Shown: piece after piece, positions 385 to 33,973 of the stretch
How the letters are laid out: every line of letters starts with the position of its first letter
Position numbering within the stretch: the first letter of the stretch is position 1
NCBI GenBank assembly: GCA_963675755.2
Contig: CAXXMD010000003.1
Location: 1 to 64,000, forward strand
Source: a bacterium
GTDB lineage: Bacteria; Zhuqueibacterota; Zhuqueibacteria; Residuimicrobiales; Krinioviventaceae
Length of the DNA: 64,000 nucleotides
Reading direction: 5' to 3'
The notes under the pieces: model-generated
Told to the model about the DNA's origin: nothing
Seen by the model: only the letters and a program-made list of their open reading frames with translations
Database searches by the model: none
Program-made: the position numbers and the translations under genes

Positions 385-437
385 TCTAATTCTCCACGTT
401 AATTGTATATATATTATTTTATACTTTTTTTATAATA

Positions 438-471
438 AATAGCTCTTAGCTTAGAGCTATTAGCTAATAGC
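438..471. repeat. 7-bp-periodic AGC-class repeat tract (self-palindromic)
   Basis: tagctct-tagctta-gagctat-tagctaa-tagc; includes the perfect 16-bp palindrome gctattagctaatagc (456-471); 5 nt from the stop of 477..2852. Confidence 0.85.
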
Positions 472-476
472 ATGTT

Positions 477-2852
477 TCATTCATACCTCAATGCCTCCAC
501 AGGATTCTCTCGTGCAGCTTTTAACACATTGTACATTATTGGCAGCATTACAAAAAATAGCGACAAGGCTATTGACATCACAAACACCAAAACTCCAATT
601 TGGATATGATAGGCAAAGTTTTCTAACCATTTATTCATAACCAAAACCACAATCGGTATCGATAAAGCAATAGCAATACCTACCACAACGTGAAATTCTC
701 TAACCAAATACAAAGAGATATCTACCAGTGTTGCACCCAAAACTTTTCGAATACCAATTTCTTTTGTACGTCGTTCAACAATAAAAAATGTCAAACCAAA
801 CAAACCCAATATGGTTATTAGCAAAGAAATGAATGTAAACATTCTAACCATTTTATTAAAATTAAGCTCATCCTTGTAAAATAGCCCAACATGATCTTCA
901 AAAAAAGAATAACGAAATTCCTTGTCAGCAAACATTTCATCCCATTTTGCATTCATACTTTTTAAAATATCAGATTGTGCTCCTGAATCTATATTAACAA
1001 TCAATTGGTAATTGGAGCTATTGTCAAACCACACACACAAAGGAGCTATTTCGTCTTTTAACGTGTGCAAATTAAAATCATTTACCACACCAATAATATT
1101 CTCAAATTTATAATCCAGTATATTATCGACACCAATTTGTTTAAACGCAGTTTCATTAATTATTGCAGAGTTTTGGGAATCATCTACCCTGAACCCACGT
1201 CCTTGAATCAATTCAAGGCCCAGTGTCCTTATAAAATCCTCATCAGCGAACATACCATTTGCGATAAATTGTTGATCCGGTTGATCTTGAACTGCCATAT
1301 TAAAATTGCCGGATATCCTCACTGGCGGCATATCCTCCATCAGCGTTGCGCTGTTTACCCCAGGCATATTTAAAATTTCATTCTTGAAAAGCAGAGCACG
1401 TTGATGCGCATTTTTCGCTGCTTTTGAATAGCCCATTGCAGCAATATCCTCCGCAGAAGGCATATTCTCTATCAGTAAAAGATTGTTTTGATCAAATCCC
1501 ATATTTTTTGTTTGCGTATACACAAGCTGTTTATAAATCACAAAACTCGAAGCAGTCATCACCATAAAAACAAAGAGCTGGGCAACAACAAATCCTTTCC
1601 AAAATCCAGTTCGAGTACTGATTTTGCTAAATGTTGAATGGAATATTTGATTGGGTTGAATACGAGTCATATATAATGCAATAATAATCCCTGGTACCAT
1701 GCCTGCAAACAAGGCAAGCATTGTTATACCTGTAAAGAATCCCCAATTCCCATCCTTAAACAATGACAAATTAACACCTAAAAAATTATTCATTACAGGA
1801 AAAAGTAATTCTGCGACAATGAATGCAATGGGTAATACAAATACAATCAAAAGCAATGACTCGCCTGGAATGTAAGAAACAAGACGAATCGTGCTGGCCC
1901 CCATCATTTTTCGCAAACCAATTTCTTTTGTCTGTGTAAACACACGGGTAATAGCAAGAACAACATGATTGAAAATTGCCATGAACAAAACCAGCAATGC
2001 AACAAATGAAAAAATGTATAAATTTTCTTTATTACCTGTTTCAAAATTATTTTGGCCAATACCTCTTGAATTCAGATACATCGCGCTTAATGGCTGCACT
2101 AAACAAGATTTTGTGCGCTCTTTTTGTTGATGTGTTAGCACAAGCTCAAGGGCCTTGTTTTTAAATTCAACAAAGCTGGCATTTTTTTTCAATAACACAA
2201 ATGTGTTCAATTTATAATCATACCAGTCATCCGGAGGAGCGATTCCATCAAAAGCTGACAATCCGGATGCGATAAAATCTACTTTTATTGACGACTGTTT
2301 CGGCAAATCTTTAAACACGCCAGCCACATAAAACTCTAAATCTCCCCCTCGTTTTTTTACCTTTAACGGTTCCTTTATAGATTTTTTTCCAAAATATTTA
2401 TCATTCATGGATTCAGATAAAAAGATCATGGATTTATTTTCATCCAAAACTCGAAAATCACCGGAAATCACCTCAATACTTAACACATCGAAAAGATCAG
2501 CATCCGCATACCAGAAATTTCGCTCACGAATGGATTTTCCTTTATAAAATATAGACACATTTGATTTTTCCATTCTGAAAGCCGTTTCAACTTCCGGCAC
2601 TTGTTTTTTTAATGCATCAGCCAATGCAACAGGAGTGCGGGCAGACTGCTTCCCGGACAAATCATCCATTTGAATGATTCGATATATTCTGTTTTTTTCC
2701 TCATGAAACTGATCATATCCGGTTTCATATAGAACGTACAAAAGAATAACAAAACAGATAGAAAGACCCGCCACAAATCCAATCATATTTAAACCGGTAT
2801 ACATCTTGTTATGCATTAACTTGCGCCAAAACCTGCTAACAGTTCCTATCAT
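477..2852 (-). CDS. ABC transporter permease, duplicated MacB-PCD/FtsX architecture (array copy 13 in transcription order)
   Basis: 791 aa; YDQFH, two KEIG(L/I)RK motifs, DFNLHTL, C-terminal NPVEALRYE. Confidence 0.95.
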   Translation of the reverse strand: MIGTVSRFWRKLMHNKMYTGLNMIGFVAGLSICFVILLYVLYETGYDQFHEEKNRIYRIIQMDDLSGKQSARTPVALADALKKQVPEVETAFRMEKSNVSIFYKGKSIRERNFWYADADLFDVLSIEVISGDFRVLDENKSMIFLSESMNDKYFGKKSIKEPLKVKKRGGDLEFYVAGVFKDLPKQSSIKVDFIASGLSAFDGIAPPDDWYDYKLNTFVLLKKNASFVEFKNKALELVLTHQQKERTKSCLVQPLSAMYLNSRGIGQNNFETGNKENLYIFSFVALLVLFMAIFNHVVLAITRVFTQTKEIGLRKMMGASTIRLVSYIPGESLLLIVFVLPIAFIVAELLFPVMNNFLGVNLSLFKDGNWGFFTGITMLALFAGMVPGIIIALYMTRIQPNQIFHSTFSKISTRTGFWKGFVVAQLFVFMVMTASSFVIYKQLVYTQTKNMGFDQNNLLLIENMPSAEDIAAMGYSKAAKNAHQRALLFKNEILNMPGVNSATLMEDMPPVRISGNFNMAVQDQPDQQFIANGMFADEDFIRTLGLELIQGRGFRVDDSQNSAIINETAFKQIGVDNILDYKFENIIGVVNDFNLHTLKDEIAPLCVWFDNSSNYQLIVNIDSGAQSDILKSMNAKWDEMFADKEFRYSFFEDHVGLFYKDELNFNKMVRMFTFISLLITILGLFGLTFFIVERRTKEIGIRKVLGATLVDISLYLVREFHVVVGIAIALSIPIVVLVMNKWLENFAYHIQIGVLVFVMSIALSLFFVMLPIMYNVLKAARENPVEALRYE

Positions 2853-2946
2853 ACGTCCCCCTCTAATTTCAAATTTACATTCATTTTTTATTAAAATTCT
2901 TTTCTATAAATTCAAATCGATTCAGTATTTTTCAAGTAATGTCTAT

Positions 2947-2979
2947 TTACTGATTACTAATAACTGATAACTGACTACT
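2947..2979. repeat. 7-bp-periodic ACTGA-class arm
   Basis: ttactga-ttactaa-taactga-taactga-ctact, abutting the stop at 2980; only a remnant of the opposite arm (ttcagtatt, ~2921). Confidence 0.85.
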
Positions 2980-5391: not shown

Positions 5392-5445
5392 TGTTATCCC
5401 TTTTAAATTTATTCAATTGAATATGCCATTCAACTTTAATTATTT

Positions 5446-5527
5446 CTAGTTTTCAGTCGTCAGTTACTAAATTACAACTATCTGTTTCGTTTTTTTACTG
5501 ACAACTAACTACTGATAACCGATTACT
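5446..5527. repeat. Inverted pair of 7-bp ACTGA-class arms (hairpin element)
   Basis: ctagttt-tcagtcg-tcagtta ... ttactga-caactaa-ctactga-taaccga-ttact, abutting the stop at 5528. Confidence 0.85.
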
Positions 5528-7876: not shown

Positions 7877-7937
7877 TTTGTTAACCTCAATTCATAATAA
7901 CTAGATAACAACAAACATCTACCAGATAGCGATCTTA

Positions 7938-10298: not shown

Positions 10299-10350
10299 TT
10301 CTTGATGTTATTAGCATCCATCAACTTTTTTCTGGTTTCACTTCTTGCAT

Positions 10351-10374
10351 CGGTTCCTGAACTTGTCAAAGGAC
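10351..10374. repeat. Degenerate REP-like half element (CCCTTCGACAAGCTCAGG type)
   Basis: Minus strand GTCCTTTGACAAGTTCAGGAACCG, 3 nt after the stop at 10378; single copy, recognised by resemblance only. Confidence 0.45.
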
Positions 10375-10377
10375 ACC

Positions 10378-12768
10378 TCACTCATAGCGCAAAGCTTTGA
10401 CCGGATTCTCAGTCGCTGCCTTGTAAACCTGCCCGGCAACAGTCAAAAACGCGATGAACAATGTTACAAACCAGGCCAGTATAAAAATACCTGGGCCGAT
10501 ATTTGTTTTGTAAGCAAAATTTTGCATCCATTTTATGCTTAAATACCATGCGGCAGGCGTTGCTATCAATACCGCAACATTAAGAAGAATAAAATATTCT
10601 TTCGATAACCCCAAAAGCACATTCCCGATCGATGCACCCAACACTTTTCGTACGCCAATTTCCCTTGTACGCTGTTCCGTACTAAAAGACACCAATCCGA
10701 ATAGCCCAATGCTGGCAATAAAAATAGCAAAGATTGAAAAAACGGTCATAATTTTACGGGTTTTCATTTCTGAAAAATACATTTTCGCATAGACATCATC
10801 CAAAATGAACCGTTCAAAATCTGCATTGGGAGCATATTGCGTCCAGATTTCACGCATAAATGAAAATAATTTTTGCATATTTTCCGGTTCACAACGTACC
10901 GATATATAATTCCGAAAATCAGGATTAATTAATAATACAACCCCTTCAACAGCCGAATGCAGGGACTTGAAGTTGAAATCTTTAACAACACCAATCACTC
11001 TCCCGGTTCTATCTTGCAATTCAGGCACTCTGAATTCTTTACCTACAGCGGTGTCCCATCCCAGTTGTTTTTTCAATTTCTCGCTTATAATATAAGCATC
11101 CGTTTTATCCGTTTCATAATTCCTCGAAAAATCACGTCCTTCAATTAATTCAAGCCCGAAAAACTTTAAAAAGTCATAATCTACTGCAGTACAGCTCGCA
11201 AACCACATTCGGTCATAGGTTTGGCCTTCAAACTCGAACTGTTTACCAAAAATACCATTCAGGTTTCTGGGACCATAGCCGCTTACATCTTTAACCCAGG
11301 TTTCCTGCAATAACTGTTGACGGATTGTCTCAAAATTATTCTGTACTTTTACCGGCATTTTAAAATCGACAACATGCTCTTTGTCAAAGCCCAGGTTTTT
11401 ATTTTGAATCCACTGTAATTGTTTATTGATTGTAAAACTGGTTACAATCAATACCATAGTTATAAAAAACTGGGCAACCACCAAAATACGTCGAATATTA
11501 AAAAATCCACTGGCACCGATATCACGGTTCTTGTTCATGATTGCTTTGGGTGCCGGTTTTGACAATACCTGCGCAGGATACCAACCGGTTAATAACCCGG
11601 CAATTAATGCAAGCAATGCCATGTATCCCAAAATCTGTATTCTGGATATACCCAGCATGCCCAATTCATTATCAAATAATCGATTAAACAAAGGCAGTGT
11701 TAGTTCAATAATCAAATAGCCCAAAAACATTGCCAGAAATGAAAACAAAATCGATTCTCCAAAAAATTGTCCCGATATTTGTGATTTTGTTGCCCCAATA
11801 GCTTTACGTATTCCTACTTCTCTTGCTCTGCGTTGGGCCCGTGCAGTTGCAAGATTAATATAATTCATACATGCTATAGCCAATACAAGCAAAGCGATTG
11901 CAGAAAACAGATAAATATAGGTAATATCCAGCTTGCGCCAGTTACGGTCCGCATCAATATTCGAAGAGTATAAATGAATTTTCTCCAGAGGCTGTAAAAC
12001 AAACGACAATCCGTCTTTAACCTCGGGGGGCATTATTTTCGAAACCAGTGCAGGCATTTTAGCTTCCAGTTGTTGAATATCTGCACCAGGAGCAAGCAAT
12101 AAATAACTCATAAAATCAAGATCATAATCATGATTTTCCATATAATCTTCTAACCAATAGGGATCAAAAGAGCACAATACCTGAAAATTCAAATGTGAAT
12201 TTCTCGGGGCTGCTTCTAAAACGCCGGTTATTTTATAATTGGCATCTTCACCAGCCTGCACAAACCGGCCCACAGGATTTTCTTTTCCAAACAGGGCATC
12301 AGCAGCCTCAGCAGTTAGCACCAGGCTCCTCGGTTCAACAAGCGCGGTTTTGGGATCGCCATATTTAAATTCATAGCTAAACACATCAAAAAAATCAGGG
12401 TCCGCACAATAAAACTCCCAATAAGGCTTGACCTTGTCACCATTCCGGACCATAACCGTTTCTTCAACCCTATACATGCGTACAAAACTTTCAATTTCAG
12501 GGAACTCTGTTTTTAACTCTGGTGCCATGCGACCATTGGTGCCGCCATTAATATGTTCATTGATCCCTTTCACATGTACATCAATAACCAGCCTTACCGT
12601 TCTATCGGATTTTTCATGAAAACGATCAAAAGATAAATGATAGTGGATCCATATAAAAAGAATCATACACAATGCAAGCCCCATCGCCAGCCCTGAAATA
12701 TTGATCACAGAATATATTTTTTGCCGAAACATATTCCTGATCGCAGTTTTAAAATAATTAATTAACAT
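10378..12768 (-). CDS. ABC transporter permease, MacB/FtsX family
   Basis: 796 aa; NYINLATARAQRRAREVGIRKAIGA, NPVKALRYE. Confidence 0.95.
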   Translation of the reverse strand: MLINYFKTAIRNMFRQKIYSVINISGLAMGLALCMILFIWIHYHLSFDRFHEKSDRTVRLVIDVHVKGINEHINGGTNGRMAPELKTEFPEIESFVRMYRVEETVMVRNGDKVKPYWEFYCADPDFFDVFSYEFKYGDPKTALVEPRSLVLTAEAADALFGKENPVGRFVQAGEDANYKITGVLEAAPRNSHLNFQVLCSFDPYWLEDYMENHDYDLDFMSYLLLAPGADIQQLEAKMPALVSKIMPPEVKDGLSFVLQPLEKIHLYSSNIDADRNWRKLDITYIYLFSAIALLVLAIACMNYINLATARAQRRAREVGIRKAIGATKSQISGQFFGESILFSFLAMFLGYLIIELTLPLFNRLFDNELGMLGISRIQILGYMALLALIAGLLTGWYPAQVLSKPAPKAIMNKNRDIGASGFFNIRRILVVAQFFITMVLIVTSFTINKQLQWIQNKNLGFDKEHVVDFKMPVKVQNNFETIRQQLLQETWVKDVSGYGPRNLNGIFGKQFEFEGQTYDRMWFASCTAVDYDFLKFFGLELIEGRDFSRNYETDKTDAYIISEKLKKQLGWDTAVGKEFRVPELQDRTGRVIGVVKDFNFKSLHSAVEGVVLLINPDFRNYISVRCEPENMQKLFSFMREIWTQYAPNADFERFILDDVYAKMYFSEMKTRKIMTVFSIFAIFIASIGLFGLVSFSTEQRTREIGVRKVLGASIGNVLLGLSKEYFILLNVAVLIATPAAWYLSIKWMQNFAYKTNIGPGIFILAWFVTLFIAFLTVAGQVYKAATENPVKALRYE

Positions 12769-22724: not shown

Positions 22725-22741
22725 TTCACACCTTTTTTATT

Positions 22742-22830: not shown

Positions 22831-22835
22831 CAATT

Positions 22836-25262
22836 TTATTCATACCTCAACGCGTCCACCGGATCAGCAGAAGCCGCCTTGACTGTATAGCCGCTGGTTG
22901 TCAGTAACGCAATAACCAACGCTAATACACCTGCCAACAGAAACGGCCAGATTCCGGGATCAACCCGGTACGCAAATCCCTGCAACCATTTATTCATGGC
23001 ATACCAGGAAGCAGGCCAGGCAAATATATTAGCAAGCAGCACCCACTTTATAAAATCACCAGACAAATGCAAAACTATACCCGGTACAGATGCGCCCAGT
23101 ACTTTTCTTAATCCGATTTCCTTTACCCGTTGTTCAGCATTGAAAATTGCAAGACCCAGCAACCCGACACAGGATATCAGGATCGCGAATCCGGTAAATA
23201 TATTGAAAACCATGGCAAACTGTTCATCACGGATATATTGCTGCTGTACCTGCTCATCCAGAAAAAAATATTCAAAATTACGGCCCGGGAACAATTGCTG
23301 GTGTTTGCTTTTCACAAAACCGAGAGTTTCTGTCAAGTTGCTGGTCTGTACGGTCAAAACGATATACCGGAATGGATTTTGGCCGTTTGCCTTAAACCAC
23401 TCGGGTGACAAAGCAAAATACAATGGCCTGACTATAGTATGCAGCGATTCATAATGTACATCTTTGCTCACGCCGATGATCGTTAACGGTGTTTCCGTCT
23501 CGTATCCGGGATTTATCGCTTTACCCAGCGCCTCTTCATTACTGTTAAAACCAAACGCCTTGCGGGCAGTCTCATTAATGACTACACTATGATAAATATC
23601 AGCAGGACTTGAAGAAAACGTCCGCCCGGCCAGAATCGGGATGTCGAAAATTTGCAAATAATCATTGTCGATCATGCTGAATTCCATGGGCTGCAATTTG
23701 TTATCGGATTGCCCTACAAGCCACACATCAAATGATAACAATCCACCGACTCCCGGAATGGCCCTTGCCATACAGGCATTGGAAATAGACGGATTGTTTA
23801 TAAATTCCTGCTTGGCTTGCTCATAGAAATCGAGTCCAGCGGAACGTTCGGCCCTTATGGGTATAATCAGCTTTTGCTCACTGTTGAACCCCATATCCAT
23901 ATTTCTTACAAAATGCATCTGTCTGAACACCGTGAGTGTTCCTGCAATCAAAGCAATAGACAATGCAAACTGCATAATAACCAGCAGCTTGCGCACGGAA
24001 AACGTCCCGCTGTCACTGAATTTCATTTTTTTAAAAACCTGTTGCGGTGTAAAAGACGCATATATCCATACCGGGTATGCCGCACAGATCAGAGATACCA
24101 GTAATATCAATCCAAATGCGCTTATAACAAATCCCGGGTTCAGCCATTCAAAATGCTGAAATTCCTTGCCGGTAAGATTGTTGAAAACCGGAATCGAAAC
24201 TTCTGACATTATGATTGCCAGCGCAAGCGAGATTAATACCATTATCATAATCTCAAATAACAATTGACGGATGATATGCGATTTTCCTGCTCCAACCACC
24301 TTGCGCACAGCCACTTCCTTTCCACGTCTCAAAGAACGACTTGTGGTCAGGTTGATAAAATTAATGCCTGCGATCAGAACAATGATAAGCGCTGTTAGAT
24401 TGAATACATATACGTAGAAAGCATTGCCGTGGACAGGGGCTTCACTTTCAAGCTCAGAATAGAGATAAATATCGCGCATGGGCTGCAGGAAATAGGTTTT
24501 TTCCATATTATCATTCGTGAGTTCTTCACCGATATAATTGTTTGCAATATGGGCAATACTTTTTTCAAACTCAGCCGCATCAATCCCCGGTTTTAATTTT
24601 ATAAAAGTATAGATCGAGATTCGTATGGTCCAGTCCGAAAAAAACCGGGCCTTTTCTACAGGCTTTAACGGTGCAAGAATATCAAACTGCAAATGACTGT
24701 TTCGGGGTGTATCTATAACCACACCGGTAACTGTTACCTCATTATTATTGATCCACAATACATGGCCTAAAGGATTTGTATCCCCAAAATACTTTTTCGC
24801 TATCCTTTCTGAAATCACTATGGATTTGCTGCCCTGAAATGCATCCTCCGCCGAGCCATAGACAAATGGCAGAGTAAAAATATCAAAAAAATCATCATCA
24901 ACGATAAAGAAATTCTTTTCGTTGAACTTCTGCTCTGGTCCCACCTGTATAACCTTGCCCGGCTGCGGCAATATCCGCGCTATATGCTCAATCTGGGGAT
25001 AATTCTCGCGCAATGCTACTGCCAACGCACCGGTAACACTGGCATGACTATGCTCGGCAATGGGAGATGTTTCTGTAACAGCTACTCGGTATATACGATC
25101 CACATCGTCATGATAAGCATCAAAGCTCTTTTCATCCTGTATCCACATAAAGATAAGGATCGCACATGCCATGCTGACTGCCAGTCCGGCAACATTGATA
25201 ATGGATATTACCCTGTTTCTGAGCAGGTTTCGAATTGCGATTTTAAAATAACTAAGCAGCAT
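22836..25262 (-). CDS. ABC transporter permease, MacB/FtsX family
   Basis: 808 aa; NFINLTTSRSLRRGKEVAVRKVVGA, DPVDALRYE. Confidence 0.95.
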   Translation of the reverse strand: MLLSYFKIAIRNLLRNRVISIINVAGLAVSMACAILIFMWIQDEKSFDAYHDDVDRIYRVAVTETSPIAEHSHASVTGALAVALRENYPQIEHIARILPQPGKVIQVGPEQKFNEKNFFIVDDDFFDIFTLPFVYGSAEDAFQGSKSIVISERIAKKYFGDTNPLGHVLWINNNEVTVTGVVIDTPRNSHLQFDILAPLKPVEKARFFSDWTIRISIYTFIKLKPGIDAAEFEKSIAHIANNYIGEELTNDNMEKTYFLQPMRDIYLYSELESEAPVHGNAFYVYVFNLTALIIVLIAGINFINLTTSRSLRRGKEVAVRKVVGAGKSHIIRQLLFEIMIMVLISLALAIIMSEVSIPVFNNLTGKEFQHFEWLNPGFVISAFGLILLVSLICAAYPVWIYASFTPQQVFKKMKFSDSGTFSVRKLLVIMQFALSIALIAGTLTVFRQMHFVRNMDMGFNSEQKLIIPIRAERSAGLDFYEQAKQEFINNPSISNACMARAIPGVGGLLSFDVWLVGQSDNKLQPMEFSMIDNDYLQIFDIPILAGRTFSSSPADIYHSVVINETARKAFGFNSNEEALGKAINPGYETETPLTIIGVSKDVHYESLHTIVRPLYFALSPEWFKANGQNPFRYIVLTVQTSNLTETLGFVKSKHQQLFPGRNFEYFFLDEQVQQQYIRDEQFAMVFNIFTGFAILISCVGLLGLAIFNAEQRVKEIGLRKVLGASVPGIVLHLSGDFIKWVLLANIFAWPASWYAMNKWLQGFAYRVDPGIWPFLLAGVLALVIALLTTSGYTVKAASADPVDALRYE

Positions 25263-25295
25263 TTAACACTCTTTTTTAATTTTATTTTTTCAATC

Positions 25296-25371
25296 AAAGC
25301 TATCAGCTATTAGCTTTATATTTTTCACAGTCAACTCATACTGACAGCTAATAGCTTATAGCTAAAAGCTG
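25296..25371. repeat. Inverted pair of 7-bp AGC-class arms ('empty' hairpin element)
   Basis: aaagcta-tcagcta-ttagctt ... ctgacag-ctaatag-cttatag-ctaaaag-ctg; same arm style as the pair flanking 33503..33862. Confidence 0.88.
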
Positions 25372-25374
25372 TTT

Positions 25375-27729
25375 TCACTCATACCTCAACGCTTTCACCG
25401 GATCAGCTGTTGCCGCTTTGATCACCTGTAAACTCACGGTCAGCATGGCAATCAAAAGCGCTGCCGTACCTGCCAGCAGGAATGGCCATACGGTAATATT
25501 GATCCGGTAGGCAAAATTCTCAAGCCACTTGTGCATGGCAAACCAGGCTATGGGCCAGGCAAAAAGGTTAGCATAAACTATACATCGCACAAAATCAGAA
25601 ATTATCATAAGAATAATTTCTTGTACCGATGATCCTAAAACTTTACGTATTCCAATTTCCCTTGTCCGCCGTTCAACGGTAAATAAAGTAAGCCCCAGCA
25701 AACCAAGCACAGAAATAAAAATTGACAAACCGGATATATAAGAAAAAATTTCATTCTGCTGAATTTCAGATCGATACAGATTATCAAAATCTTTGTCATA
25801 AAAAGAGTAACTAAATTCAGTTTGAAAAATATCATTCCAGGCATCGGAAAGATATTCAATGGAATCGTGAATCGCGTTTGGATCAACCCGCACAAGCAGG
25901 AACTTGCATAATTCCGGGTAAAGATAGATTGCCATCGGTTCGATTTTGTGATGTAAAGATTCAAAGTTGAAATCTTTTACAACACCTGCGATTTCACCCC
26001 ATTCAATAATTTTCATAGGTTCACCGATTGGATTGTCCCACCCCAATTGTTTCACGGCAGATTCATTCAATATATAAGTCTTGTGAGACCGCCGGTAGGG
26101 TTCCCCGGAAAAGGTACCACCCTGTTTCAATTCAAGACCAAACGTGTTTATAAAATCATAATCCACACTGATCCAGTTGATATATTTCATCTTGTTTGCG
26201 GCCTCGCCTTTAAAAATTACGTTCTGGTTAAAACCGGGCTCGCTGGGCAAATAAGATGTTGCTGTTACACCTTTTATACTGGCATTTTTAAGTATCTCTG
26301 TTTTAAAAACATCATATTTTTGCTGATCCTGATTCTCATATATGGGAAGAACAATTAAATGGTCCTTATCATATCCCAGCTTTTTGGAACTGGTATATTG
26401 CATTTGGTGTCGCATTACAAACATGCAAACCATAAAGAGTATCGTGATAGTGAATTGCAATACCACCAAAGCACCTCTAAAACCGAATGTATGGGGAACA
26501 GCTTCTTTATTTATATTCGAGATAGGTTTGAGCTTGGAAAGATAAAACGCGGGATAAATCCCCACAACACTCCCAACCAAAACAGATGCAAATAAAAGTA
26601 CGGTCATAAATTTAAAGTTGTATAAATAGTGCAAAGATATCTCTTTACCTGTGTAATGATTAAATATAGGTAAAATATAGGTTGCCAAAACCAATGAAAC
26701 AATTAAAGAGACAATCATTAAAAACATGGTTTCTGCCACAAACTGAATCGACAATTGATGCCGTTTTGCGCCTATAACTTTACGTAATCCTATCTCTTTT
26801 TCTTTGGTCATTATTTGCAAAGTGGTCATGTTTATATAATTGAAACAGGCCAAGATCAGTATCAAAACAGAAATTCCGATAAAAATATAGATATGTGAAC
26901 TGTCTTTGTCAGTTGGCAAATCATTAATCGGATCAATATCTATATGTGTTTTTAATAGAGGCTGCAGCAAAAATTTACTGTCCTGATTATGCGCATATAG
27001 CAAACCCGAAAGTTTTTTTTCAACCTGTTCAACATTGCTATTTTTGTTTAATAAAACATAAGTCGGATAATTATAGGCGCTCCAGCTCAGGTTCCCTTCA
27101 TTGCCTTTTGTATATAGCTTTTCAAAAGAGGCCAATAGCTCATACTGAAATCGTGAATTTGAAGGCGGGTCATCTACAACATGAGTAACCGTATAATCGT
27201 GGGTAAACGGCTTTGTACCAACGGTTATGACTTGATCGATCGGATCATAATCGCCAAAAAGTTTGTGAGCAACAGATTGGGTAATGACAACAGAGTTGAT
27301 ATTTCTAAAAACTGTACCAGCGTCTCCTTTTACGAGTTTTACATCGAATATGTCAAAATAGCTTTTATCAACCAATAGAAATGTATTTTTTTGAATTTCT
27401 CTATTTTGATTTGTGATGGTATATCTTTGCCCGTCAGCAAACCTTACAATGGTTTCAATCTCCGGAATACTTTTGGCAATTTCTAAAGCGATTGGAGCAG
27501 GCGCATTTGGATGATATTTCGTAGCTCCCTGAGAGTCATATTGCAAAACCAGACGATAAATGTTATCGACTTTTTCATGAAATGCATCATATCCAAGATC
27601 ATCTTGGACATATAAAGCGATCAAAATGCAGGAACACAATCCTATGGTAAAACCTATAATGCTGATAGCGGAATAAGTTTTAAATTTCCATAAATAACGG
27701 ATAGAATATTTAAGATTAGTGAAAAACAT
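25375..27729 (-). CDS. ABC transporter permease, MacB/FtsX family
   Basis: Start MFFTNL at 27729, 1 nt after the upstream stop (ORF extends to 27738); DPVKALRYE. Confidence 0.95.
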   Translation of the reverse strand: MFFTNLKYSIRYLWKFKTYSAISIIGFTIGLCSCILIALYVQDDLGYDAFHEKVDNIYRLVLQYDSQGATKYHPNAPAPIALEIAKSIPEIETIVRFADGQRYTITNQNREIQKNTFLLVDKSYFDIFDVKLVKGDAGTVFRNINSVVITQSVAHKLFGDYDPIDQVITVGTKPFTHDYTVTHVVDDPPSNSRFQYELLASFEKLYTKGNEGNLSWSAYNYPTYVLLNKNSNVEQVEKKLSGLLYAHNQDSKFLLQPLLKTHIDIDPINDLPTDKDSSHIYIFIGISVLILILACFNYINMTTLQIMTKEKEIGLRKVIGAKRHQLSIQFVAETMFLMIVSLIVSLVLATYILPIFNHYTGKEISLHYLYNFKFMTVLLFASVLVGSVVGIYPAFYLSKLKPISNINKEAVPHTFGFRGALVVLQFTITILFMVCMFVMRHQMQYTSSKKLGYDKDHLIVLPIYENQDQQKYDVFKTEILKNASIKGVTATSYLPSEPGFNQNVIFKGEAANKMKYINWISVDYDFINTFGLELKQGGTFSGEPYRRSHKTYILNESAVKQLGWDNPIGEPMKIIEWGEIAGVVKDFNFESLHHKIEPMAIYLYPELCKFLLVRVDPNAIHDSIEYLSDAWNDIFQTEFSYSFYDKDFDNLYRSEIQQNEIFSYISGLSIFISVLGLLGLTLFTVERRTREIGIRKVLGSSVQEIILMIISDFVRCIVYANLFAWPIAWFAMHKWLENFAYRINITVWPFLLAGTAALLIAMLTVSLQVIKAATADPVKALRYE
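25378..25559. repeat. 182-bp direct repeat, copy 1 (partner 27734-27915)
   Basis: Manual alignment: 6 mismatches in 182 bp, perfect core 25421-25540. Confidence 0.92.
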
Positions 27730-27730
27730 A

Positions 27731-30100
27731 TTACTCATACCTCAACGCATCGACCGGATCAGCCGTTGCCGCTTTAATCACCTGTAAACTCACGGTCAGC
27801 ATGGCAATCAAAAGCGCTGCCGTACCTGCCAGCAGGAATGGCCATACGGTAATATTGATCCGGTAGGCAAAATTCTCAAGCCACTTGTGCATGGCATACC
27901 AGGCTATGGGCCAGGAAATCACACTTGAAATCAGAATACGATTTACAAATCCACTCAGTAATAATCTTAGAATACTGCTCAATGAAGCACCCAGCACTTT
28001 ACGTACACCAATCTCTTTGGTTCGTTTTTCAGCCATGAACGAGGCAAATCCAAATAATCCCAGGCACGAGATAAATATGGCAAACACGGTAAATCCGTTA
28101 AAAAGGAGCTTAATCCGCTGCTCCAATTGGTACATGCGTTCATATCGTTCATCTAAAAAGCTGTATTCGAGGGGATATCCAGTAACGCGTCTGTCCCAAA
28201 CACTTTTAATAGACCGGATACTCTCATCAATCCTGTCACCGGTTCGCACCAAAAGAGTAAATCCCATAGCGCTGACAGGCTCTTCTGTCATGGGTAAAAA
28301 CACCTGTGGTTCAACGCTTTTGTGCAGCGAGTGAAAATTGGCGTCTTTGATCACACCTACAATGGTTCCCGGATTGTCATTTCCATAAACCGAGATCGAT
28401 TTCCCGATGGGGTCTGTAATACCCATCCGGCTCAAACCGGTTTCATTGATAATGACTGCGTTTTGAACATCACCAGGATAGTCTGGTGAAAAACTCCTAC
28501 CGAACAATAGTTCTACATTCAGGTCCGATAAATAGGATTCGTTGATCCAGTTGACTTCCCATATTACGTCCTCATCCGGATCTTTGCCCTGCCAGTTTAC
28601 GGATTGGGTAGCACGGGCAATATGCTCGGGAGAACAGTTTTTCACAGCCACACCGGCAATTCCGGGCTGACGCAGCAGTTCATCCCGCATGGATTCGTAA
28701 TCCACATCAACACCCCGGTTTACTTCAACGCAAAGAATATTCTCTTTGTTGAAACCCAAAGATTTGTTCTGCAGATAATGTACCTGCTCATTTACAACCA
28801 GCATACCGGTTATTAACGCAATGGATAAGGAAAACTGAACGATAGTGAGTACATGACGGAACCCAAAAGATTTTCCCGCTTTGATTTTCTGTTTAAATGC
28901 CGATTGCGGTTTAATTGCGGAAAGATAAAATGCAGGATATGCTCCCGCAATCAATGCGGTAATAATTAAAACTCCCACCAATGAAATCAAAAATTCCGGA
29001 TTGGTTAAATTTAAAGCACAAACAGAACTTGACAATTGCGCATAAATGGGACATCCTATAACTGCAAGTCCCAGTGCAAGGATAAAGGCCGCAAATGTAA
29101 TTAAAAACGATTCACCCATAAACTGCATTACAATGTCTTTTCTGGCTGCGCCCATTACCTTTTTCAAGCCAATCTCTTTGGCACGATTGGTAAACCGGGC
29201 CGTGGATATGCTCATATAGTTGATACAGGCTATGAGCAAAATGAAAACAGCAATGACAGAAAATATATAAATGTAATTTCGATTCACGGTGCTACTGTCA
29301 TCATTGAACAAACCGGGATTCAAATGTATGGACTGTAATGGCTGTAATTCAAAACTCTTGTTTGTATTCGGATTCGTGTTATTTTTCTTATATAACGAAG
29401 TAATATTACCGGCAACCGCTTGTGGATTAGACTGCTCATCTATCAGTACATAGGTATATGTAGGGAATCGGTTCCAGCGAGTTAGCAGATCGTTACGTTT
29501 TTCAGCTGCCTCAAAAGAGGTCAAAAAACGAAAACCCATATGCGAGTTTTCCGGCCAGTCCCTGATTACCCCGGCAACTGTCATCAATACTGAATTCACT
29601 TCTATTTGCTGACCCAGGGGATTATTGTCACCAAAATATTTTTTTGCCGCGCTTTCAGTAAAAACAATCCTGTCCGGTGCGGACAATGCACTCGCGCCAT
29701 CTCCGGCTAAAAATTCAACTGAAAAAATATCAAAAAAGGATGGGTCTGCTACCGCCACCCCATCTTCAAACATGGCTTCATTGTTATACCGGAATAATGT
29801 ATTTACCCCGCTTCTGAACCGGGTGGCTTTTAATACCTGCGGCAATTCCTGTTCAAGCTCCGGCGCCATAGGACCGGGAGTAGAGGCCCATTTGGCAGCA
29901 TTATTATGAAAATCGGATATAACCCGGTAAATCCGGTCCGATTGATCATTAAATCCATCATAACTCAGCTCATGCTGCACCCACTGCAAAATAAATATCA
30001 CACAAGCCAGACTCACCGCCAATCCGGTTATATTTAAAATGGAATATTGTTTATGTTTTAACAGATTTCGTATCGCAATTTTCAGATAATTAATTAACAT
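27731..30100 (-). CDS. ABC transporter permease, MacB/FtsX family
   Basis: 789 aa; MLINYLKIAIRNL, AGGAG RBS, DPVDALRYE. Confidence 0.95.
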   Translation of the reverse strand: MLINYLKIAIRNLLKHKQYSILNITGLAVSLACVIFILQWVQHELSYDGFNDQSDRIYRVISDFHNNAAKWASTPGPMAPELEQELPQVLKATRFRSGVNTLFRYNNEAMFEDGVAVADPSFFDIFSVEFLAGDGASALSAPDRIVFTESAAKKYFGDNNPLGQQIEVNSVLMTVAGVIRDWPENSHMGFRFLTSFEAAEKRNDLLTRWNRFPTYTYVLIDEQSNPQAVAGNITSLYKKNNTNPNTNKSFELQPLQSIHLNPGLFNDDSSTVNRNYIYIFSVIAVFILLIACINYMSISTARFTNRAKEIGLKKVMGAARKDIVMQFMGESFLITFAAFILALGLAVIGCPIYAQLSSSVCALNLTNPEFLISLVGVLIITALIAGAYPAFYLSAIKPQSAFKQKIKAGKSFGFRHVLTIVQFSLSIALITGMLVVNEQVHYLQNKSLGFNKENILCVEVNRGVDVDYESMRDELLRQPGIAGVAVKNCSPEHIARATQSVNWQGKDPDEDVIWEVNWINESYLSDLNVELLFGRSFSPDYPGDVQNAVIINETGLSRMGITDPIGKSISVYGNDNPGTIVGVIKDANFHSLHKSVEPQVFLPMTEEPVSAMGFTLLVRTGDRIDESIRSIKSVWDRRVTGYPLEYSFLDERYERMYQLEQRIKLLFNGFTVFAIFISCLGLFGFASFMAEKRTKEIGVRKVLGASLSSILRLLLSGFVNRILISSVISWPIAWYAMHKWLENFAYRINITVWPFLLAGTAALLIAMLTVSLQVIKAATADPVDALRYE
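27734..27915. repeat. 182-bp direct repeat, copy 2
   Basis: Offset 2356 bp from copy 1; encodes the near-identical permease C-terminus. Confidence 0.92.
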
Positions 30101-30160
30101 TGAATCTCCTGGAATGATGAAAACACTCTTTTTTTATCTATACTAAATTATTATTTGTAT

Positions 30161-30240
30161 CCAGTCATCAGTAATCAGTCGTCAGTTTACAGCAACAAGT
30201 TCCGTTATTACTGATAACTGAATACTGATAACCGAAAACT
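30161..30240. repeat. Inverted pair of 7-bp ACTGA-class arms (hairpin element)
   Basis: ccagtca-tcagtaa-tcagtcg-tcagttt ... ttactga-taactga-atactga-taaccga-aaact, abutting the stop at 30241. Confidence 0.9.
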
Positions 30241-32556
30241 TTATTCATACCTCAACGCCTCGACTGGATTCGCTGTAGCCGTCTTGATAACCTGCCAACT
30301 GGTTGTCATTAATGCAACGGATATGGCTGCAACACCCGAGATAGCGAATATCCACCAGCCCAGCTCAGTACGATAAGCAAAGCTCTCAAGCCATTTGTTC
30401 ATGATATACCAGCTCACCGGTACAGCGATAATAAAAGCAATAGCAGTCCATTTCAGCATGTCCCGGTTAAGCAGGACTGTTATCTCCCGCACAGATGCAC
30501 CGTTCACCTTGCGAATGCCTACCTCTTTTGCACGACGACGAGTCGTAAACTGAACCACACCAAAAGTACCCATAGCTGTGATCAGCAGGGCAATTACAGA
30601 AAAAATCCGGATTGCGAATCCCAGTCTTTCTTCAGATTTATACATGGCATCATACCATTCGTCATAAAAAGAATATTCTAATACAAATTCAGGACATACC
30701 TCGCCCCAAACGTTCTTGATATAATCCAAAGTACCGGAAATATTATCAGGCGCAATTCGCAAAGAAAGCCAGGTATAATAGCTGTCCTGGTCATAAGCAA
30801 AGAATACCGGTCCAAGCGTTTTGTACATATTCTTTGTGTGAAAATCTTTAACAACACCAATAACATCATTACCGTTTATTTTTTTACCCTCAATCGACTC
30901 CCAATTCACCAGTTTTCTGGCAGATTCATTAATAATAATGACATTGTTTTTCTCTGTAGTATTAAAATTTCTTCCTTCAATGACTGGCACATCAAACACA
31001 TTGAAAAAATCTGTATCCACCAAAAACATGGAAACACTCTGGTCCCAGGTCCCCAGCTCCTTTGCCTCATTCCAACCGCAAGACATGTATACTGCACCGG
31101 GTCCGCTGTTTGAACAGGTAACATGATATACTTGCGGAGATTCTATAATTTTCTGTTTCAACAATGGGAGTTTATCTTTGATCCGCCATGAAGTTTCAAT
31201 TTTGACCAGACAATCTTTATCAAATCCCCAATCCATATTTTTAACATGCTTCATCTGTAGACCGATCACTATCAATGCCGTGATCAAAATTATACTAACC
31301 GTATACTGCACGGTCAGTAATCCCGACTTGATCTTGAGCGCATTACCGTCTACATTGCGGAACATGGAGAGAACAGAGTAACGCGATGCCAGTATCGCAG
31401 GGAACAATCCCGCCAACACTGAGATCAGGATCAAGCCCGCAGGAATCAACAGAACCGTCGGCATAGAGTATATATAATTCATATCAAAAGATTTATTGAC
31501 AATGGACTCAAACAAGGGCTTGGTCAATCCGGACAATAAAATAGCTGCTAAAAGTGATATGGTGCCAATCAAAACAGATTCCAAAATAAATTGAAAAAAG
31601 ATGGCTTTACTTCCAGCACCCACAGTTTTCTTGGTACCAATCTCTTTTATCCTTGTCATATACTGCGCTGTAAATAATACAACAAAATTTAAAATCGAGA
31701 TCAACAGAACCAACAGGGCAATTGCACCTAGAATCCGGATCAACCTCAAATTGGCATGCATTAAATGGCTGTTGTCCCTGACATCACTAAAATAAGAGTC
31801 TTTCAGCGGCATCAGGCTTACCGCTTCTTTAACCATATTATGCTCAACCAAATGCGCGGACAGTTTATCATTAACTGCCGTAACATCACTGCCAGGCTCA
31901 AGCAGCACAAAATATCGGTTAAAGTATATAATCTTGTCACCATCTGAATAACTGTTTACTACAGATTTCAGATCTCTGTGAATAATTGTTTTTGGCTGAA
32001 AGCTTGAATTCTCTGGCAGGGATTTGATTACAGCACTCACGGTCAAATCATTTTTATGATAAACGGTTACCGGCTCACCAACCGGGTTCCGCTCTCCAAA
32101 TATTTTTTGTGCAATTTCTTCAGTTAAAATAATAGAATTCATATCGCTCAGAGCAGTCTCTTTGTTACCATATACAAAATCCACATCAAAAATATCAAAG
32201 AATGATGGTTCGGTATGCAGAATTTGATTGACCTTGGTTGAATGCAGATTATATGTCAGTGCTCCCCGAAAATTAATAAAATAGTTATATCGGCATACAT
32301 TTTCAATTTCAGGGAAATCATAGGTCAGATAATCAATTGCATCTTCATTGATATCGCTCTCGCCATCATCTTTGATCATCCGATAAATACGGTCGACTTT
32401 GCTGAAACTCTTGTCATACGACAATTCATTAAACACAAAAGCGGATAACAGCAGAACCACTGTCAGGCTCAGCGTAAATCCTGATATGGTAATGACCGAA
32501 AATGTCTTGTTCCTGATCAAATTGCGATAAAACAACCGAAAAAAATGGATCATCAT
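30241..32556 (-). CDS. ABC transporter permease, MacB/FtsX family (first of the array in transcription order)
   Basis: Start MMIHFF at 32556 (GGGAG upstream; ORF extends to 32583); RRAKEVGIRKVNGA, NPVEALRYE. Confidence 0.95.
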   Translation of the reverse strand: MMIHFFRLFYRNLIRNKTFSVITISGFTLSLTVVLLLSAFVFNELSYDKSFSKVDRIYRMIKDDGESDINEDAIDYLTYDFPEIENVCRYNYFINFRGALTYNLHSTKVNQILHTEPSFFDIFDVDFVYGNKETALSDMNSIILTEEIAQKIFGERNPVGEPVTVYHKNDLTVSAVIKSLPENSSFQPKTIIHRDLKSVVNSYSDGDKIIYFNRYFVLLEPGSDVTAVNDKLSAHLVEHNMVKEAVSLMPLKDSYFSDVRDNSHLMHANLRLIRILGAIALLVLLISILNFVVLFTAQYMTRIKEIGTKKTVGAGSKAIFFQFILESVLIGTISLLAAILLSGLTKPLFESIVNKSFDMNYIYSMPTVLLIPAGLILISVLAGLFPAILASRYSVLSMFRNVDGNALKIKSGLLTVQYTVSIILITALIVIGLQMKHVKNMDWGFDKDCLVKIETSWRIKDKLPLLKQKIIESPQVYHVTCSNSGPGAVYMSCGWNEAKELGTWDQSVSMFLVDTDFFNVFDVPVIEGRNFNTTEKNNVIIINESARKLVNWESIEGKKINGNDVIGVVKDFHTKNMYKTLGPVFFAYDQDSYYTWLSLRIAPDNISGTLDYIKNVWGEVCPEFVLEYSFYDEWYDAMYKSEERLGFAIRIFSVIALLITAMGTFGVVQFTTRRRAKEVGIRKVNGASVREITVLLNRDMLKWTAIAFIIAVPVSWYIMNKWLESFAYRTELGWWIFAISGVAAISVALMTTSWQVIKTATANPVEALRYE

Positions 32557-32624
32557 TTCTCCCAAAATTAATCTATATACCAAATCAACACATCTATTCT
32601 GTTATACATCATAATTAACTAACT

Positions 32625-32716
32625 ATAGTTATCAGCCGTCAGTTTTCAGTTTTTAGAATACTAATTCCAATCCACAGATTTTCTTACTGATTACTGACTA
32701 CTGATAACTGACAACT
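32625..32716. repeat. Inverted pair of 7-bp ACTGA-class arms (hairpin element)
   Basis: atagtta-tcagccg-tcagttt-tcagttt-ttag ... ttactga-ttactga-ctactga-taactga-caact. Confidence 0.9.
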
Positions 32717-32721
32717 TTTCT

Positions 32722-33411
32722 TTACACATGAAACTGATTGCGCATATTCTCGGTTACGACTTTACCATCGAACAGATGCACAATCCGGTTGCTGAATTCC
32801 GCGTACGTCGGCGAGTGGGTTACCATCACAATGGTAGTGCCTTTATCATTCAGCTCGGTAAGTATGCTCATTACTTCGTCACCATGACGTGAATCGAGAT
32901 TACCGGTCGGTTCATCCGCGAGGATCACTTTGGGGTCTGCCACAACCGCGCGCGCAACCGCTACACGTTGCTGCTGACCACCGGACAATTGCTGCGGAAA
33001 GTGGTTTTTCCGGTGCATGATCTGCATATATTCCATGGCATGCTCTACCCGTTCTTTGCGTTCTTTGGCCGGGACTTTCATATACAACAGCGGCAGTTCA
33101 ATGTTCTCAAACACTGTCAATTCATCGATCAGGTTAAAAGATTGAAAGATGAATCCAATGTTGCCTTTGCGCAGGTTGGCGCGTTGACGTTCATTGTATT
33201 TGGCAACATTCTCACCATTGAAAAAATAATCACCACCGTCTATAGTATCAATCAAGCCAATTACATTTAGCAGCGTCGACTTGCCACACCCTGATGGCCC
33301 CATAATGGCCACAAACTCGCCCTCATTGGCCTGGAAATTAATATTGTTCAGCGCTGCCGTCTCAATCTCATCCGTACGATAGACTTTGTTAAGATTTGTT
33401 GTTTTGATCAT
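32722..33411 (-). CDS. ABC transporter ATP-binding protein, LolD/MacB family
   Basis: Walker A GPSGCGKST, signature LSGGQQQR, Walker B ILADEPTGNLD, VTH switch. Confidence 0.97.
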   Translation of the reverse strand: MIKTTNLNKVYRTDEIETAALNNINFQANEGEFVAIMGPSGCGKSTLLNVIGLIDTIDGGDYFFNGENVAKYNERQRANLRKGNIGFIFQSFNLIDELTVFENIELPLLYMKVPAKERKERVEHAMEYMQIMHRKNHFPQQLSGGQQQRVAVARAVVADPKVILADEPTGNLDSRHGDEVMSILTELNDKGTTIVMVTHSPTYAEFSNRIVHLFDGKVVTENMRNQFHV

Positions 33412-33481
33412 TTTTGATTCCTTTATCTATGCTAGCAAAAATTGATTTTTTATTTTTATTCTTGTTAATACAATCTATCTA

Positions 33482-33514
33482 AAAGCTTTCAGCTGTTAGC
33501 TATCAGCTCTCAGC
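33482..33514. repeat. 7-bp AGC-class arm downstream of, and overlapping the end of, the four-helix-bundle gene
   Basis: aaagctt-tcagctg-ttagcta-tcagctc-tcagc; supplies the last codons and the TGA stop. Confidence 0.88.
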
Positions 33515-33862
33515 CTTTAGTCGTGTAATTAATGCTGCAAGCATACGCTTTACATCATTTAATGAGTCAGATGTCTTTTTGTAATTCAATTCATCTATAT
33601 ATTCCAAATCCTTTGATAACAACAACTGATAATCTAACTCACTAGCGGAGCCCGAAGCTATGAATAAAAACCTGCTGAATTCTGCATCACTGCTTCGACA
33701 ACAACCTTCCGCTATATTCGAAGGTATTGATACTGCACTTCGTCTCATTTGACTTGAAAGTCCAAATAATTCCTCTTTTGGAAATGCTTTTGTCAACTTA
33801 TATACTTCCATCACAACTTTATGGCTTTTCTTCCACACCTTTAAATTCCTAAAATCCTGCAT
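33503..33862 (-). CDS. Four-helix-bundle protein (23S rRNA-IVP / TIGR02436 family, Avd-like fold)
   Basis: 119 aa; family motifs FRNLKVW, FPKEELFGLSSQMRRSAVSIPSNIAEG, IASGSASEL; RBS GGAGG. Confidence 0.95.
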   Translation of the reverse strand: MQDFRNLKVWKKSHKVVMEVYKLTKAFPKEELFGLSSQMRRSAVSIPSNIAEGCCRSSDAEFSRFLFIASGSASELDYQLLLSKDLEYIDELNYKKTSDSLNDVKRMLAALITRLKAES

Positions 33863-33882
33863 TCAACTCCCCTCCTGTTTTT

Positions 33883-33973
33883 CTGATAGCTTATAGCTGA
33901 TAGCTTACAGCTTTAATTCCCGTCTATCGTTTCATATCTTCTGTCTGCCGTTTCACATCTCCCATCTGCCGTC
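33883..33973. repeat. AGC-class arm (33883-33913) plus CGT-class arm (33917-33973)
   Basis: ctgatag-cttatag-ctgatag-cttacag-ctt; ttcccgt-ctatcgt-ttcatat-cttctgt-ctgccgt-ttcacat-ctcccat-ctgccgt, abutting the stop at 33974. Confidence 0.9.

Follow-up and report, generated by a model that had tools for sequence, protein, structure and literature searches.

The window analysed here is the whole stretch of 64,000 nucleotides at the start of contig C3 of a genome of the family Krinioviventaceae (G000; G001 denotes a congener, and the other G codes denote the relatives that were compared). Its first ~35 kb form a single minus-strand string of 17 genes with 16 junctions, most of which carry tracts of degenerate 7-nt repeats (heptamers); these tracts, together with a PF05635 gene that two of them enclose, are the subject of this work. 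The string opens with a HlyD/MacA-type membrane-fusion adaptor (33974-35224; Pfam HlyD_3 and HlyD_D23), which is followed by the PF05635 gene (33503-33862), a MacB-type ABC ATPase (32722-33411; Pfam ABC_tran, 1.5e-35), 13 tandem permease paralogs with Pfam MacB_PCD and FtsX domains, the hosts of the insertions (A01 to A13, with A13 nearest the window start; 477-32583, 778-808 aa each), and a second ATPase that extends beyond the window start (1-384). The permeases share 25-38% mutual identity and are as highly diverged as a first-pass annotation of the same DNA had stated. The PF05635 product, a four-helix bundle of 119 aa from the family of the 23S rRNA intervening sequence (IVS) proteins, is referred to below as IVP.

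Heptamer tracts at the operon junctions

All 16 junction sequences were inspected in gene sense, and 7-nt-periodic tracts were found at 13 of them. A strict detector requiring at least three exact cores in phase recovered 12 of the 13 tract junctions, and the thirteenth (5392-5527) was detected by Tandem Repeats Finder (TRF) as a period-14 array at 5495-5527; the junction sequences, the core chains and TRF agree with the 13 junctions previously annotated. The three tract-free junctions are 7877-7937, 10299-10377 and an 8-nt overlap at 27731-27738. In gene sense the units fall into the three classes that had been described (AGC, ACTGA/TCAGT and CGT), namely TCAGTnn with its inverted partner nnACTGA, AGCTnnn, and the purine-rich ACGTGAn/ACGGCAG. 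The tracts do begin close to the stop codons of the upstream genes, and only the range of 0-6 nt given for that distance has to be widened: the first exact in-phase core lies at -1 to +12 nt past the stop (12 junctions), or at -2 to +5 nt when degenerate units are counted. At the junction 33863-33973 the first exact core found by the script is 61 nt past the stop, and by eye a CGT-class tract starts at the stop itself.

The operon contains one full cassette, in which two arms enclose the IVP gene, six gene-less hairpins and six solo or composite arm junctions, all of them given here on the minus strand. Upstream of the full cassette, a CGT-class tract of GACGGCA/GATGTGA units begins at the HlyD stop codon (33928-33972; TRF period 21, 2.1 copies; also seen in the junction sequence). 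The 5' arm consists of four AGCT-class units about 25 nt before the IVP start (33883-33913; TRF periods 7 and 14, core chain 33888-33912), and the 3' arm of AGCT-class units lies over the IVP stop codon (33484-33514; TRF period 7, 4.4 copies, core chain 33484-33508).

The presence of hairpins at six junctions, as annotated earlier, was confirmed by folding: the six have energies of -26.5 to -39.1 kcal/mol (z -3.4 to -5.2) and loops of about 15-35 nt, slightly longer than the 15-30 nt claimed. They are found between the ATPase and A01 (32627-32709, TCAGT/ACTGA arms; -32.3 kcal/mol, z -3.40), between A01 and A02 (30159-30239; -39.1 kcal/mol, z -4.59), between A03 and A04 (25298-25363, AGCT arms with chains at 25298-25315 and 25346-25370; -27.9 kcal/mol, z -3.55), between A04 and A05 (22745-22827, TCAGT/ACTGA arms; -32.1 kcal/mol, z -4.33), between A08 and A09, and between A11 and A12 (5449-5527, degenerate TCAGT arms; -26.5 kcal/mol, z -3.63). 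The A08/A09 junction is composite (12811-12959), with a CGT-class tract at the stop codon (12925-12959) that precedes a TCAGT/CTGA hairpin (12811-12885; -31.1 kcal/mol, z -5.18; TRF and core chains).

Single arms occupy further junctions. Between A05 and A06 (20325-20381) a solo TCAGT arm at 20363-20381, detected as a chain, is followed by CGT-class units visible in the junction sequence. AGCT-class tracts lie between A06 and A07, where the tract forms a short self-hairpin (17875-17903; TRF, fold z -2.34), between A07 and A08 (15388-15418; TRF period 14 and a chain, fold z -1.72), and past the A13 stop codon before the second ATPase (438-471; TRF, chain 441-465). A solo TCAGT arm also follows the A12 stop codon (2949-2974; TRF period 7 and a chain), and its fold is not significant (z +1.01). 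Over the single-arm junctions and two of the tract-free ones, fold z-scores ranged from -2.3 to +1.0, with no departure from shuffled sequences.

No minus-strand terminator-like match was obtained at any junction hairpin in a scan of 16000-35900; the hairpins have no T-run and are followed by A-rich sequence. Rfam at its gathering threshold gave 0 matches in the window. At the tract-free A09/A10 junction (10299-10377), a conserved motif, GTCCTTTGACAAGTTCAGGAACCGATG, was observed directly past the stop codon. The same motif recurs past an unrelated permease of G001 (loci L001 and L002 joined, 20966-21045 and 10794-11032), and it may be another small junction element.

This architecture could be read as RNA punctuation that benefits the host, in line with the second option of the first-pass annotation: the stems would have evolved in place to process, stabilise or anti-terminate a ~35-kb mRNA gene by gene, with IVP as the RNA-binding factor of the operon. 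The start of the arms at stop codons is in line with such a role, and hairpins that have no T-run and are not called as terminators are closer to processing or stabiliser stems. The three junctions without tracts, in turn, fit poorly with a punctuation that the operon requires.

IVP genes and their arms across phyla

The IVP gene of the window (Pfam 1.3e-41) matches PF05635 with 141.6 bits against a cut-off of 33.8 and covers profile positions 1-105 of 106. Its product matches PDB entries 2GSC (5.9e-23) and 2RLD (2.1e-07), each of which has five chains. The AlphaFold model (pLDDT 90.4) has helices at residues 8-24, 29-54, 59-85 and 91-118, and in Foldseek it resembles XCC0516 and BT_0352 (2GSC: TM 0.92, rmsd 1.3). 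The fold relationship to Avd, the accessory protein of diversity-generating retroelements (DGRs), that had been put forward earlier was also recovered, as a weaker match than that to XCC0516 and BT_0352 (4DWL: TM 0.79 by query and 0.87 by target, 11% identity; also 8UB7 and other DGR ribonucleoproteins).

In order to examine the association of arms and gene beyond the window, we analysed 80 loci encoding relatives of the window's IVP, collected by means of a 5-sequence alignment from phyla that include Acidobacteriota, Chloroflexota, Bacteroidota, Verrucomicrobiota, Planctomycetota, Spirochaetota and Cyanobacteriota. In the 150 nt upstream of the gene, 54 of the 80 loci have a 21-nt window in which 16 or more positions match at lag 7, compared with 1-3 loci at lags 4-6 and 8-11. 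Downstream flanks were positive at lag 7 in 24 of the 80, against 0-1 at other lags, and control genes in the same loci reached only 12/155 upstream and 14/187 downstream. The two flanks are complementary to each other: an arm complementarity score of at least 10 was obtained at 57 of 79 loci, compared with 2 of 79 for a reversed control and 11 of 79 when the arm was taken from another locus. The median number of units per arm is 4.3 upstream and 4.1 downstream. Moreover, at 31 of 79 loci the IVP stop triplet is repeated in phase at +7, compared with one locus at +6 and one at +8, and in at least 31 of the 79 the 3' arm has the stop codon of the gene as its first unit.

An armed IVP gene lies between the adaptor or outer-membrane protein gene and the ATPase gene in six genomes (G000, G001, G014, G017, G003 and G020), with different heptamers in each, and in other phyla IVP genes with arms are also found in unrelated operons. 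When cassettes were folded whole, the arms paired around the open reading frame (ORF) in six of seven (G001, G014, G020, G003, G030 and G025), the window's own copy being the exception. The proposal that the arms and the PF05635 gene belong together is supported by the armed IVPs at most of the 80 loci and in the same slot of five further genomes, well beyond this window. In a quickly built IVP tree, in which 44 of 84 forks are open, the phyla are mixed and the embedded IVPs of the two congeners lie far apart. A second PF05635 gene of G000 (G000:C3:1660475-1660843, L020; L026 in G001) stands without heptamer arms and has a terminator-like hairpin of its own.

In the literature searched, which did not extend to the supplementary tables of PMC4679880, no paper tying PF05635 to heptamer arms was found. 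In the passages of published papers that deal with them, IVP genes inside cas operons and rRNA insertions are left unexplained.

Distribution and turnover of the tracts

Genome-wide chains of exact cores number 20 for ACTGA, 11 for TCAGT, 14 for AGCT and 5 for ACGT in G000, compared with 0-5 for control cores of the same length, so that the ACGT-class count is no higher than the top of the control range. Sixteen of the 50 chains fall in the 34 kb of the operon. By gaps between genes, as delimited by our own crude ORF calls, 11 of 14 are tract-positive in the operon against 25 of 3043 elsewhere (Fisher p = 4e-20). The heptamer tracts exceed chance. They are intergenic, except where they slightly overlap gene ends or two small ORFs of doubtful status, and by the same ORF calls the 31 exact-core ACTGA/TCAGT chains are all intergenic except one that overlaps a 121-aa ORF by 12 nt. 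Across the genome, solo TCAGT arms, in the same sense as the gene upstream, lie 3-74 nt past its stop codon, in most cases no more than 16 nt, and ACTGA-sense arms lie 80-165 nt before start codons.

The enrichment shows only for specific cores and not for period 7 as such. With TRF at score 30 over the whole genome, period 7 was not over-represented (238 rows; periods 8 and 9 gave 279 and 590). A class-agnostic lag-7 detector requiring at least 16 of 21 matches was positive at 6 of 15 window junctions and at 23 of 2415 gaps genome-wide, and at a threshold of at least 14 other lags attained equal values. Because this detector is weak, we rely on chains of cores in phase.

Elsewhere in the genome the arms come after rhamnosidases, BNR/PA14 proteins, peptidases and cargo of the type IX secretion system (T9SS). 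No shared function was found among the other tract-bearing genes, which encode glycoside hydrolases, peptidases and T9SS cargo and include several tandem paralogs. At G000:C2:2078440-2095900 (L009 and L010), tracts follow such paralogs arranged in tandem, namely two BNR/PA14 proteins (~600 aa) and rhamnosidases (~1140 aa), a hint that tandem arrays may be preferred as hosts or that gene duplication carried the tracts along. Two loci far apart share a composite element of ~150 nt (BLAST, 87% identity over 92 nt). In an all-against-all BLAST of 38 tract clusters only four pairs were alike beyond the arms, which rules out a family of miniature inverted-repeat transposable elements with a conserved interior.

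The tracts can be counted among the TAACTGA-type heptamer direct repeats (MacGregor 2015, PMC4679880), with which they share the tandem arrangement, the ACTGA core, the intergenic position, a sporadic distribution among relatives, indels in 7-nt steps and the mixture of heptamers within one spacer. As described in the sections of that paper on their placement, the TAACTGA repeats are mostly direct, lie just upstream of start codons and were proposed to act in translational regulation; these sections report one inverted repeat and no link to PF05635. The tracts described here, in contrast, come as inverted pairs that begin at stop codons, and they are linked to the IVP gene. Read in one of the two orientations, each unit contains a stop codon (ACTGA, ACGTGA, TAGCT), and three units would close all three frames; a stop codon within the repeat unit is pointed out for TAACTGA in the same paper (PMC4679880).

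Plain simple-sequence repeats, that is, heptamer microsatellites born by slippage in AT-rich spacers with no tie to IVP and no function, would account for part of these data. Perfect arrays of 9 and 13 units exist, and congener arrays differ by multiples of 7 nt: orthologous tracts outside the operon differ in whole units between G000 and G001 (9 versus ~3 past a U32 peptidase gene, one past a glycoside hydrolase GH2 gene). The account of TAACTGA repeats likewise describes a sporadic distribution, which includes five Bacteroidetes, and 7-nt-step indels (PMC4679880). Slippage, however, leaves unexplained the inverted arm pairs, the fixed core combined with free spacer positions, the placement at stop codons and the tie to a single gene family (54/80 loci versus 12/155 control genes), and we consider this explanation distinctly unlikely.

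The comparison with the congener shows how the junctions change. The G001 operon has 11 permeases, nine of which are orthologs of G000 permeases (89-96% identity) in the same order; A03, A04 and A08 have no G001 counterpart, and A13 and the G001 permease B10 are unrelated. Gene-less tracts are also present in the G001 array and, by eye, at ~11 of 19 G014 junctions. Some junctions are well preserved: A01/A02 is ~95% conserved between the congeners, the ATPase/A01 hairpin is kept with one compensatory and one one-sided change, and at A11/A12 the arms are kept with two compensatory changes around a loop that is unrelated in G001. The A04/A05 junction is homologous to B02/B03 of G001 and has a different loop. 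At other orthologous junctions the element itself differs, as at A05/A06, where G000 has a solo TCAGT arm with CGT-class units and G001 has ACGT and AGCT units, and at A06/A07, where an AGCT-class tract in G000 stands against a TCAGT hairpin in G001. Over the four hairpins that can be aligned, 18 of 230 paired columns differ compared with 111 of 313 unpaired ones, and among 115 stem pairs none is broken, 12 show one-sided changes and three show compensatory changes, although the stem and loop structure was derived from the same two sequences and is biased toward conserved pairs, a point that also weighs against the reading preferred below.

The embedded IVPs of G000 and G001 are only 61% identical, whereas identity reaches 98% for the adjoining HlyD and is complete for the stand-alone second IVP. 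Because of this disparity, the embedded copy points to replacement of the cassette rather than to drift in place.

These comparisons bear on the RNA punctuation described above. In its favour, the tract density is extreme and operon-specific in three genomes of two genera, six genomes have an IVP at the operon head, and the stems are conserved relative to the loops. It does not explain, however, why orthologous junctions of the congeners differ in class or have a solo arm instead of a hairpin, why the same arms follow the unrelated genes listed above and accompany IVPs in unrelated operons, or why the embedded IVP looks replaced. In addition, the array of five tandem permeases in G004, a relative free of arms, has spacers of 2-98 nt, and by eye none of its seven junctions holds a tract. 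We therefore regard a punctuation evolved in place as unlikely.

The first-pass annotation had also suggested that the arms might be boundaries of DNA recombination or of cassettes, at which permeases are added or shuffled; such sites would be comparable to integron attC sites and might also serve to delete permeases. attC sites are imperfect palindromes placed just after the ORFs of integron cassettes, and the arms resemble them in being imperfect palindromes directly past each ORF; the gene content of the congeners does differ (G001 lacks A03, A04 and A08, and A13 is not the ortholog of B10). The recommended comparison of permease order and number across relatives nevertheless gave no support to shuffling: the number differs in G001, but the nine orthologs that it shares with G000 follow one another in unchanged order. 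With paralogs that are 25-38% identical the array is old, and tandem permeases are found in the arm-free G004 as well. In the one indel that could be resolved, A03-A04, the left breakpoint lies inside a conserved C-terminal coding motif common to A02 and A04, the corresponding G001 junction is homologous to A04/A05, and A02 has no arm after it in G000; ordinary unequal recombination between paralogs would explain the difference. In agreement with the earlier annotation, a scan of 36 window ORFs turned up no recombinase or reverse transcriptase, and in particular no integrase-type gene. Over 14001-34000, the contigs of three public runs from one study are colinear with the window and contain no indels; joints were limited to some whose sides measure 20-42 nt, at 85% likeness. 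Several of these joints link arms of different junctions or loci, and they were taken as repeat artefacts and rejected as rearrangements. Recombination at the arms is, in our estimate, very improbable.

Some junctions of the relatives are built differently. In G014:C84 (L003-L005), past the second ATPase, composite junctions are ordered A-B-loop-A'-B': ACGTGAn units and TCAGYTn units are followed by a loop and by their complements in the same order, so that the arm pairs cross and do not nest, like a predicted pseudoknot or two mutually exclusive hairpins. In G017:C97 (L007, 15984-16298), one permease junction has four to five tandem ~57-nt copies, each comprising a permease C-terminal coding motif and a G+C-rich hairpin, a different padding of the same junctions. 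In G004, the slot between adaptor and ATPase (L113, G004:C6, 16451-16795) is occupied by a tightly packed 114-aa ORF with no Pfam match, whose N-terminus is faintly IVP-like (hhalign probability 4.7%); judging from this faint similarity, it could be a decayed or domesticated IVP.

As for the surroundings of the operon, a sigma-54 response regulator (Pfam Sigma54_activat, Response_reg, HTH_8) and a histidine kinase (HATPase_c) are encoded divergently on the plus strand at 35379-38172; they are likely the regulators of the permease operon and stand outside the repeat system. The end of contig C2 contains an FtsX C-terminal fragment. Because the genes after this fragment are syntenic with the region downstream of the G001 array, the operon most likely continues over the C2/C3 gap into one further permease; by G001 synteny, the assembly gap is positioned within the second ATPase and the last permease. 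Genes near the operon encode T9SS sorting domains, which assign the organism to the FCB group. An unrelated second repeat family, with tandem 36-nt and ~9-10-nt units rich in AATCCTGT/AATCCGGGT, was observed at window positions 42920-43105 and 50277-50371, where it flanks tandem PKD/T9SS-cargo genes (upstream of 43251-46541 and downstream of 46558-50121).

Proposed interpretation as IVS-like cassettes

We lean toward reading the tracts as a fast-turnover family of IVS-like cassettes with full, gene-less and solo-arm forms, an account that we judge a little likelier to be right than wrong. A cassette consists of two inverted arrays of ~4-5 degenerate heptamers each, with a conserved core of 4-5 nt and 2-3 free positions per unit, enclosing either a PF05635 gene (the full form, 33484-33913) or a loop of 15-35 nt (the six gene-less hairpins); some copies persist as single or composite arms, as at six junctions. 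Its site is between a stop codon and the ribosome-binding region of the next gene, which leaves the host genes intact. On this account the cassettes are not part of the transporter's own logic and are probably selfish DNA that has colonised this operon in one genus and its sister genus. The data above show the anatomy, rarity and enrichment of the tracts, their link to IVP in many phyla and their turnover between the congeners, while RNA processing, binding by IVP and the way of spreading are inferences.

The closest known systems are the ORF-bearing IVSs of 23S rRNA (helix 45 in Coxiella burnetii, and in Leptospira, with an S23p/PF05635 ORF). They enclose the same protein family, their ORF lies within flanks that pair into a long stem, as in six of seven cassettes here, not including the window's own, and they are inserted in a host transcript. 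The Coxiella IVS is described as a selfish element that RNase III excises (PMC4990558), and PF05635 ORFs are also reported in rRNA insertions of candidate phyla radiation bacteria, according to another (10.1101/2024.02.27.582315). Unlike those elements, the cassette of the window lies between protein-coding genes and not in rRNA, the arms are arrays of degenerate heptamers, and the gene-less and solo-arm forms outnumber the full form.

Other systems share single traits. With Avd the likeness is one of fold, by the Foldseek match given above, and a homology statement is contained in PMC10053308; a DGR is nevertheless not indicated, since identity is 11% and no reverse transcriptase was found among the window ORFs and no RVT_1 in the genome. 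No template or variable repeats were seen near IVP, although no specific search for them was made. An integron is not indicated either, given the ORF scan for integrases, the coding breakpoint and the conserved ortholog order described above.

Repetitive extragenic palindromes (REPs) and bacterial interspersed mosaic elements (BIMEs) are short extragenic palindromes, and a REPtron is a gene for a REP-associated tyrosine transposase (RAYT) flanked by inverted REPs. The cassettes resemble them in having palindromes between genes that are probably co-transcribed, a gene-bearing master form with many gene-less copies, and a likely effect on mRNA 3' ends. In contrast to REPtrons, a four-helix bundle without a known catalytic motif takes the place of the Y1 transposase, the distribution of Y1_Tnp genes in these genomes does not follow that of the arms, and the arms are heptamer arrays and not one conserved palindrome. 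In phage T7 early mRNA, RNase III processing hairpins lie between cistrons. Both they and the stems described here are ~20-30-bp interrupted stems in intercistronic spacers of a long polycistronic transcript, which is presumed for this operon. The analogy is purely one of putative function: the T7 sites do not consist of heptamer arrays and have no link to an ORF.

If the IVS-like reading is right, the arms may be arrays of recognition units for IVP, which would be pentameric by its PDB relatives. Free unit positions of the paired arms show 34 non-wobble mismatches versus 221 Watson-Crick pairs and are mostly without co-variation, which suggests that the repeated core and not the helix is what is kept. 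A core every 7 nt would suit reading by an oligomeric protein, and a pentamer would fit 4-5 units. In single-stranded nucleic acid, inverted arms would pair into an interrupted duplex of 17-31 bp. In the transcript this duplex could be tolerated or be cut by RNase III, as with the 23S rRNA IVSs; the genome encodes RNase III (G000:C2:1366800-1367444). Each upstream cistron would then end in a 3' stem, and the insertion would be rendered harmless. As for new copies, unit slippage and local copying are seen, and no transposase or reverse transcriptase is tied to the arms.

Several observations weigh against this reading. The lack of co-variation just described is one of them, and the arms of the window's own full cassette are another: these AGCT arms pair weakly, and the minimum free energy structure joins the 5' arm to the end of the coding region. 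Comparing the strands for signs of a duplex in RNA does not convince: folds of the sense strand are more stable in 11 of 11 hairpins (G-U pairs 53 versus 18), but this strand is rich in G and T; when mismatch types were counted directly, the result was 12 versus 4 (p = 0.08), and in 67 IVP loci it was 66 versus 62. The genome scan proposed in the first-pass annotation, which bore out the enrichment in the operon, also placed the 25 positive gaps elsewhere in G000 far from both IVP genes. Among the 31 relatives, IVP genes occur in 29, and ACTGA-class tracts, searched as a triple pattern, in only four (49 matches in G000, 41 in G001, 9 and 1 in two genomes of one sister genus). Finally, a mobilising enzyme was not found: RVT_1 is absent from G000 and G014 by genome search, Y1 transposases do not track the arms, being present in all four genomes checked including the arm-free G004, and no Y1_Tnp locus of G000 is near any of the tracts listed.

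Cyanobacterial short tandemly repeated repetitive sequences (STRRs) are heptamer repeats akin to TAACTGA. A bolder extension of the IVS-like reading, which we offer tentatively and consider rather doubtful, is that these are cross-phylum self-propagating elements whose sole gene encodes a pentameric IVP that reads its own arms, one heptamer per subunit. TAACTGA/STRR repeats and ORF-bearing rRNA IVSs would then be two faces of one element, which would have spread in cis from the head copy along the 35-kb unit, and whose hairpins might now serve as points of RNA processing or insulation.

To our knowledge, PF05635 proteins have been without a known function since their discovery in rRNA intervening sequences, and bacterial heptamer repeats have been catalogued and never explained. 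The statistical and anatomical link between IVP and heptamers makes both testable. The window is a useful test bed for this purpose: it holds all cassette forms in one operon, and it can be compared with a congener that has defined junction differences and with an arm-free relative that has the same operon. For annotation, the arms may be mistaken for terminators, CRISPR-like repeats or assembly artefacts, and an IVP gene located in a cas or transporter operon is not necessarily a functional part of that system.

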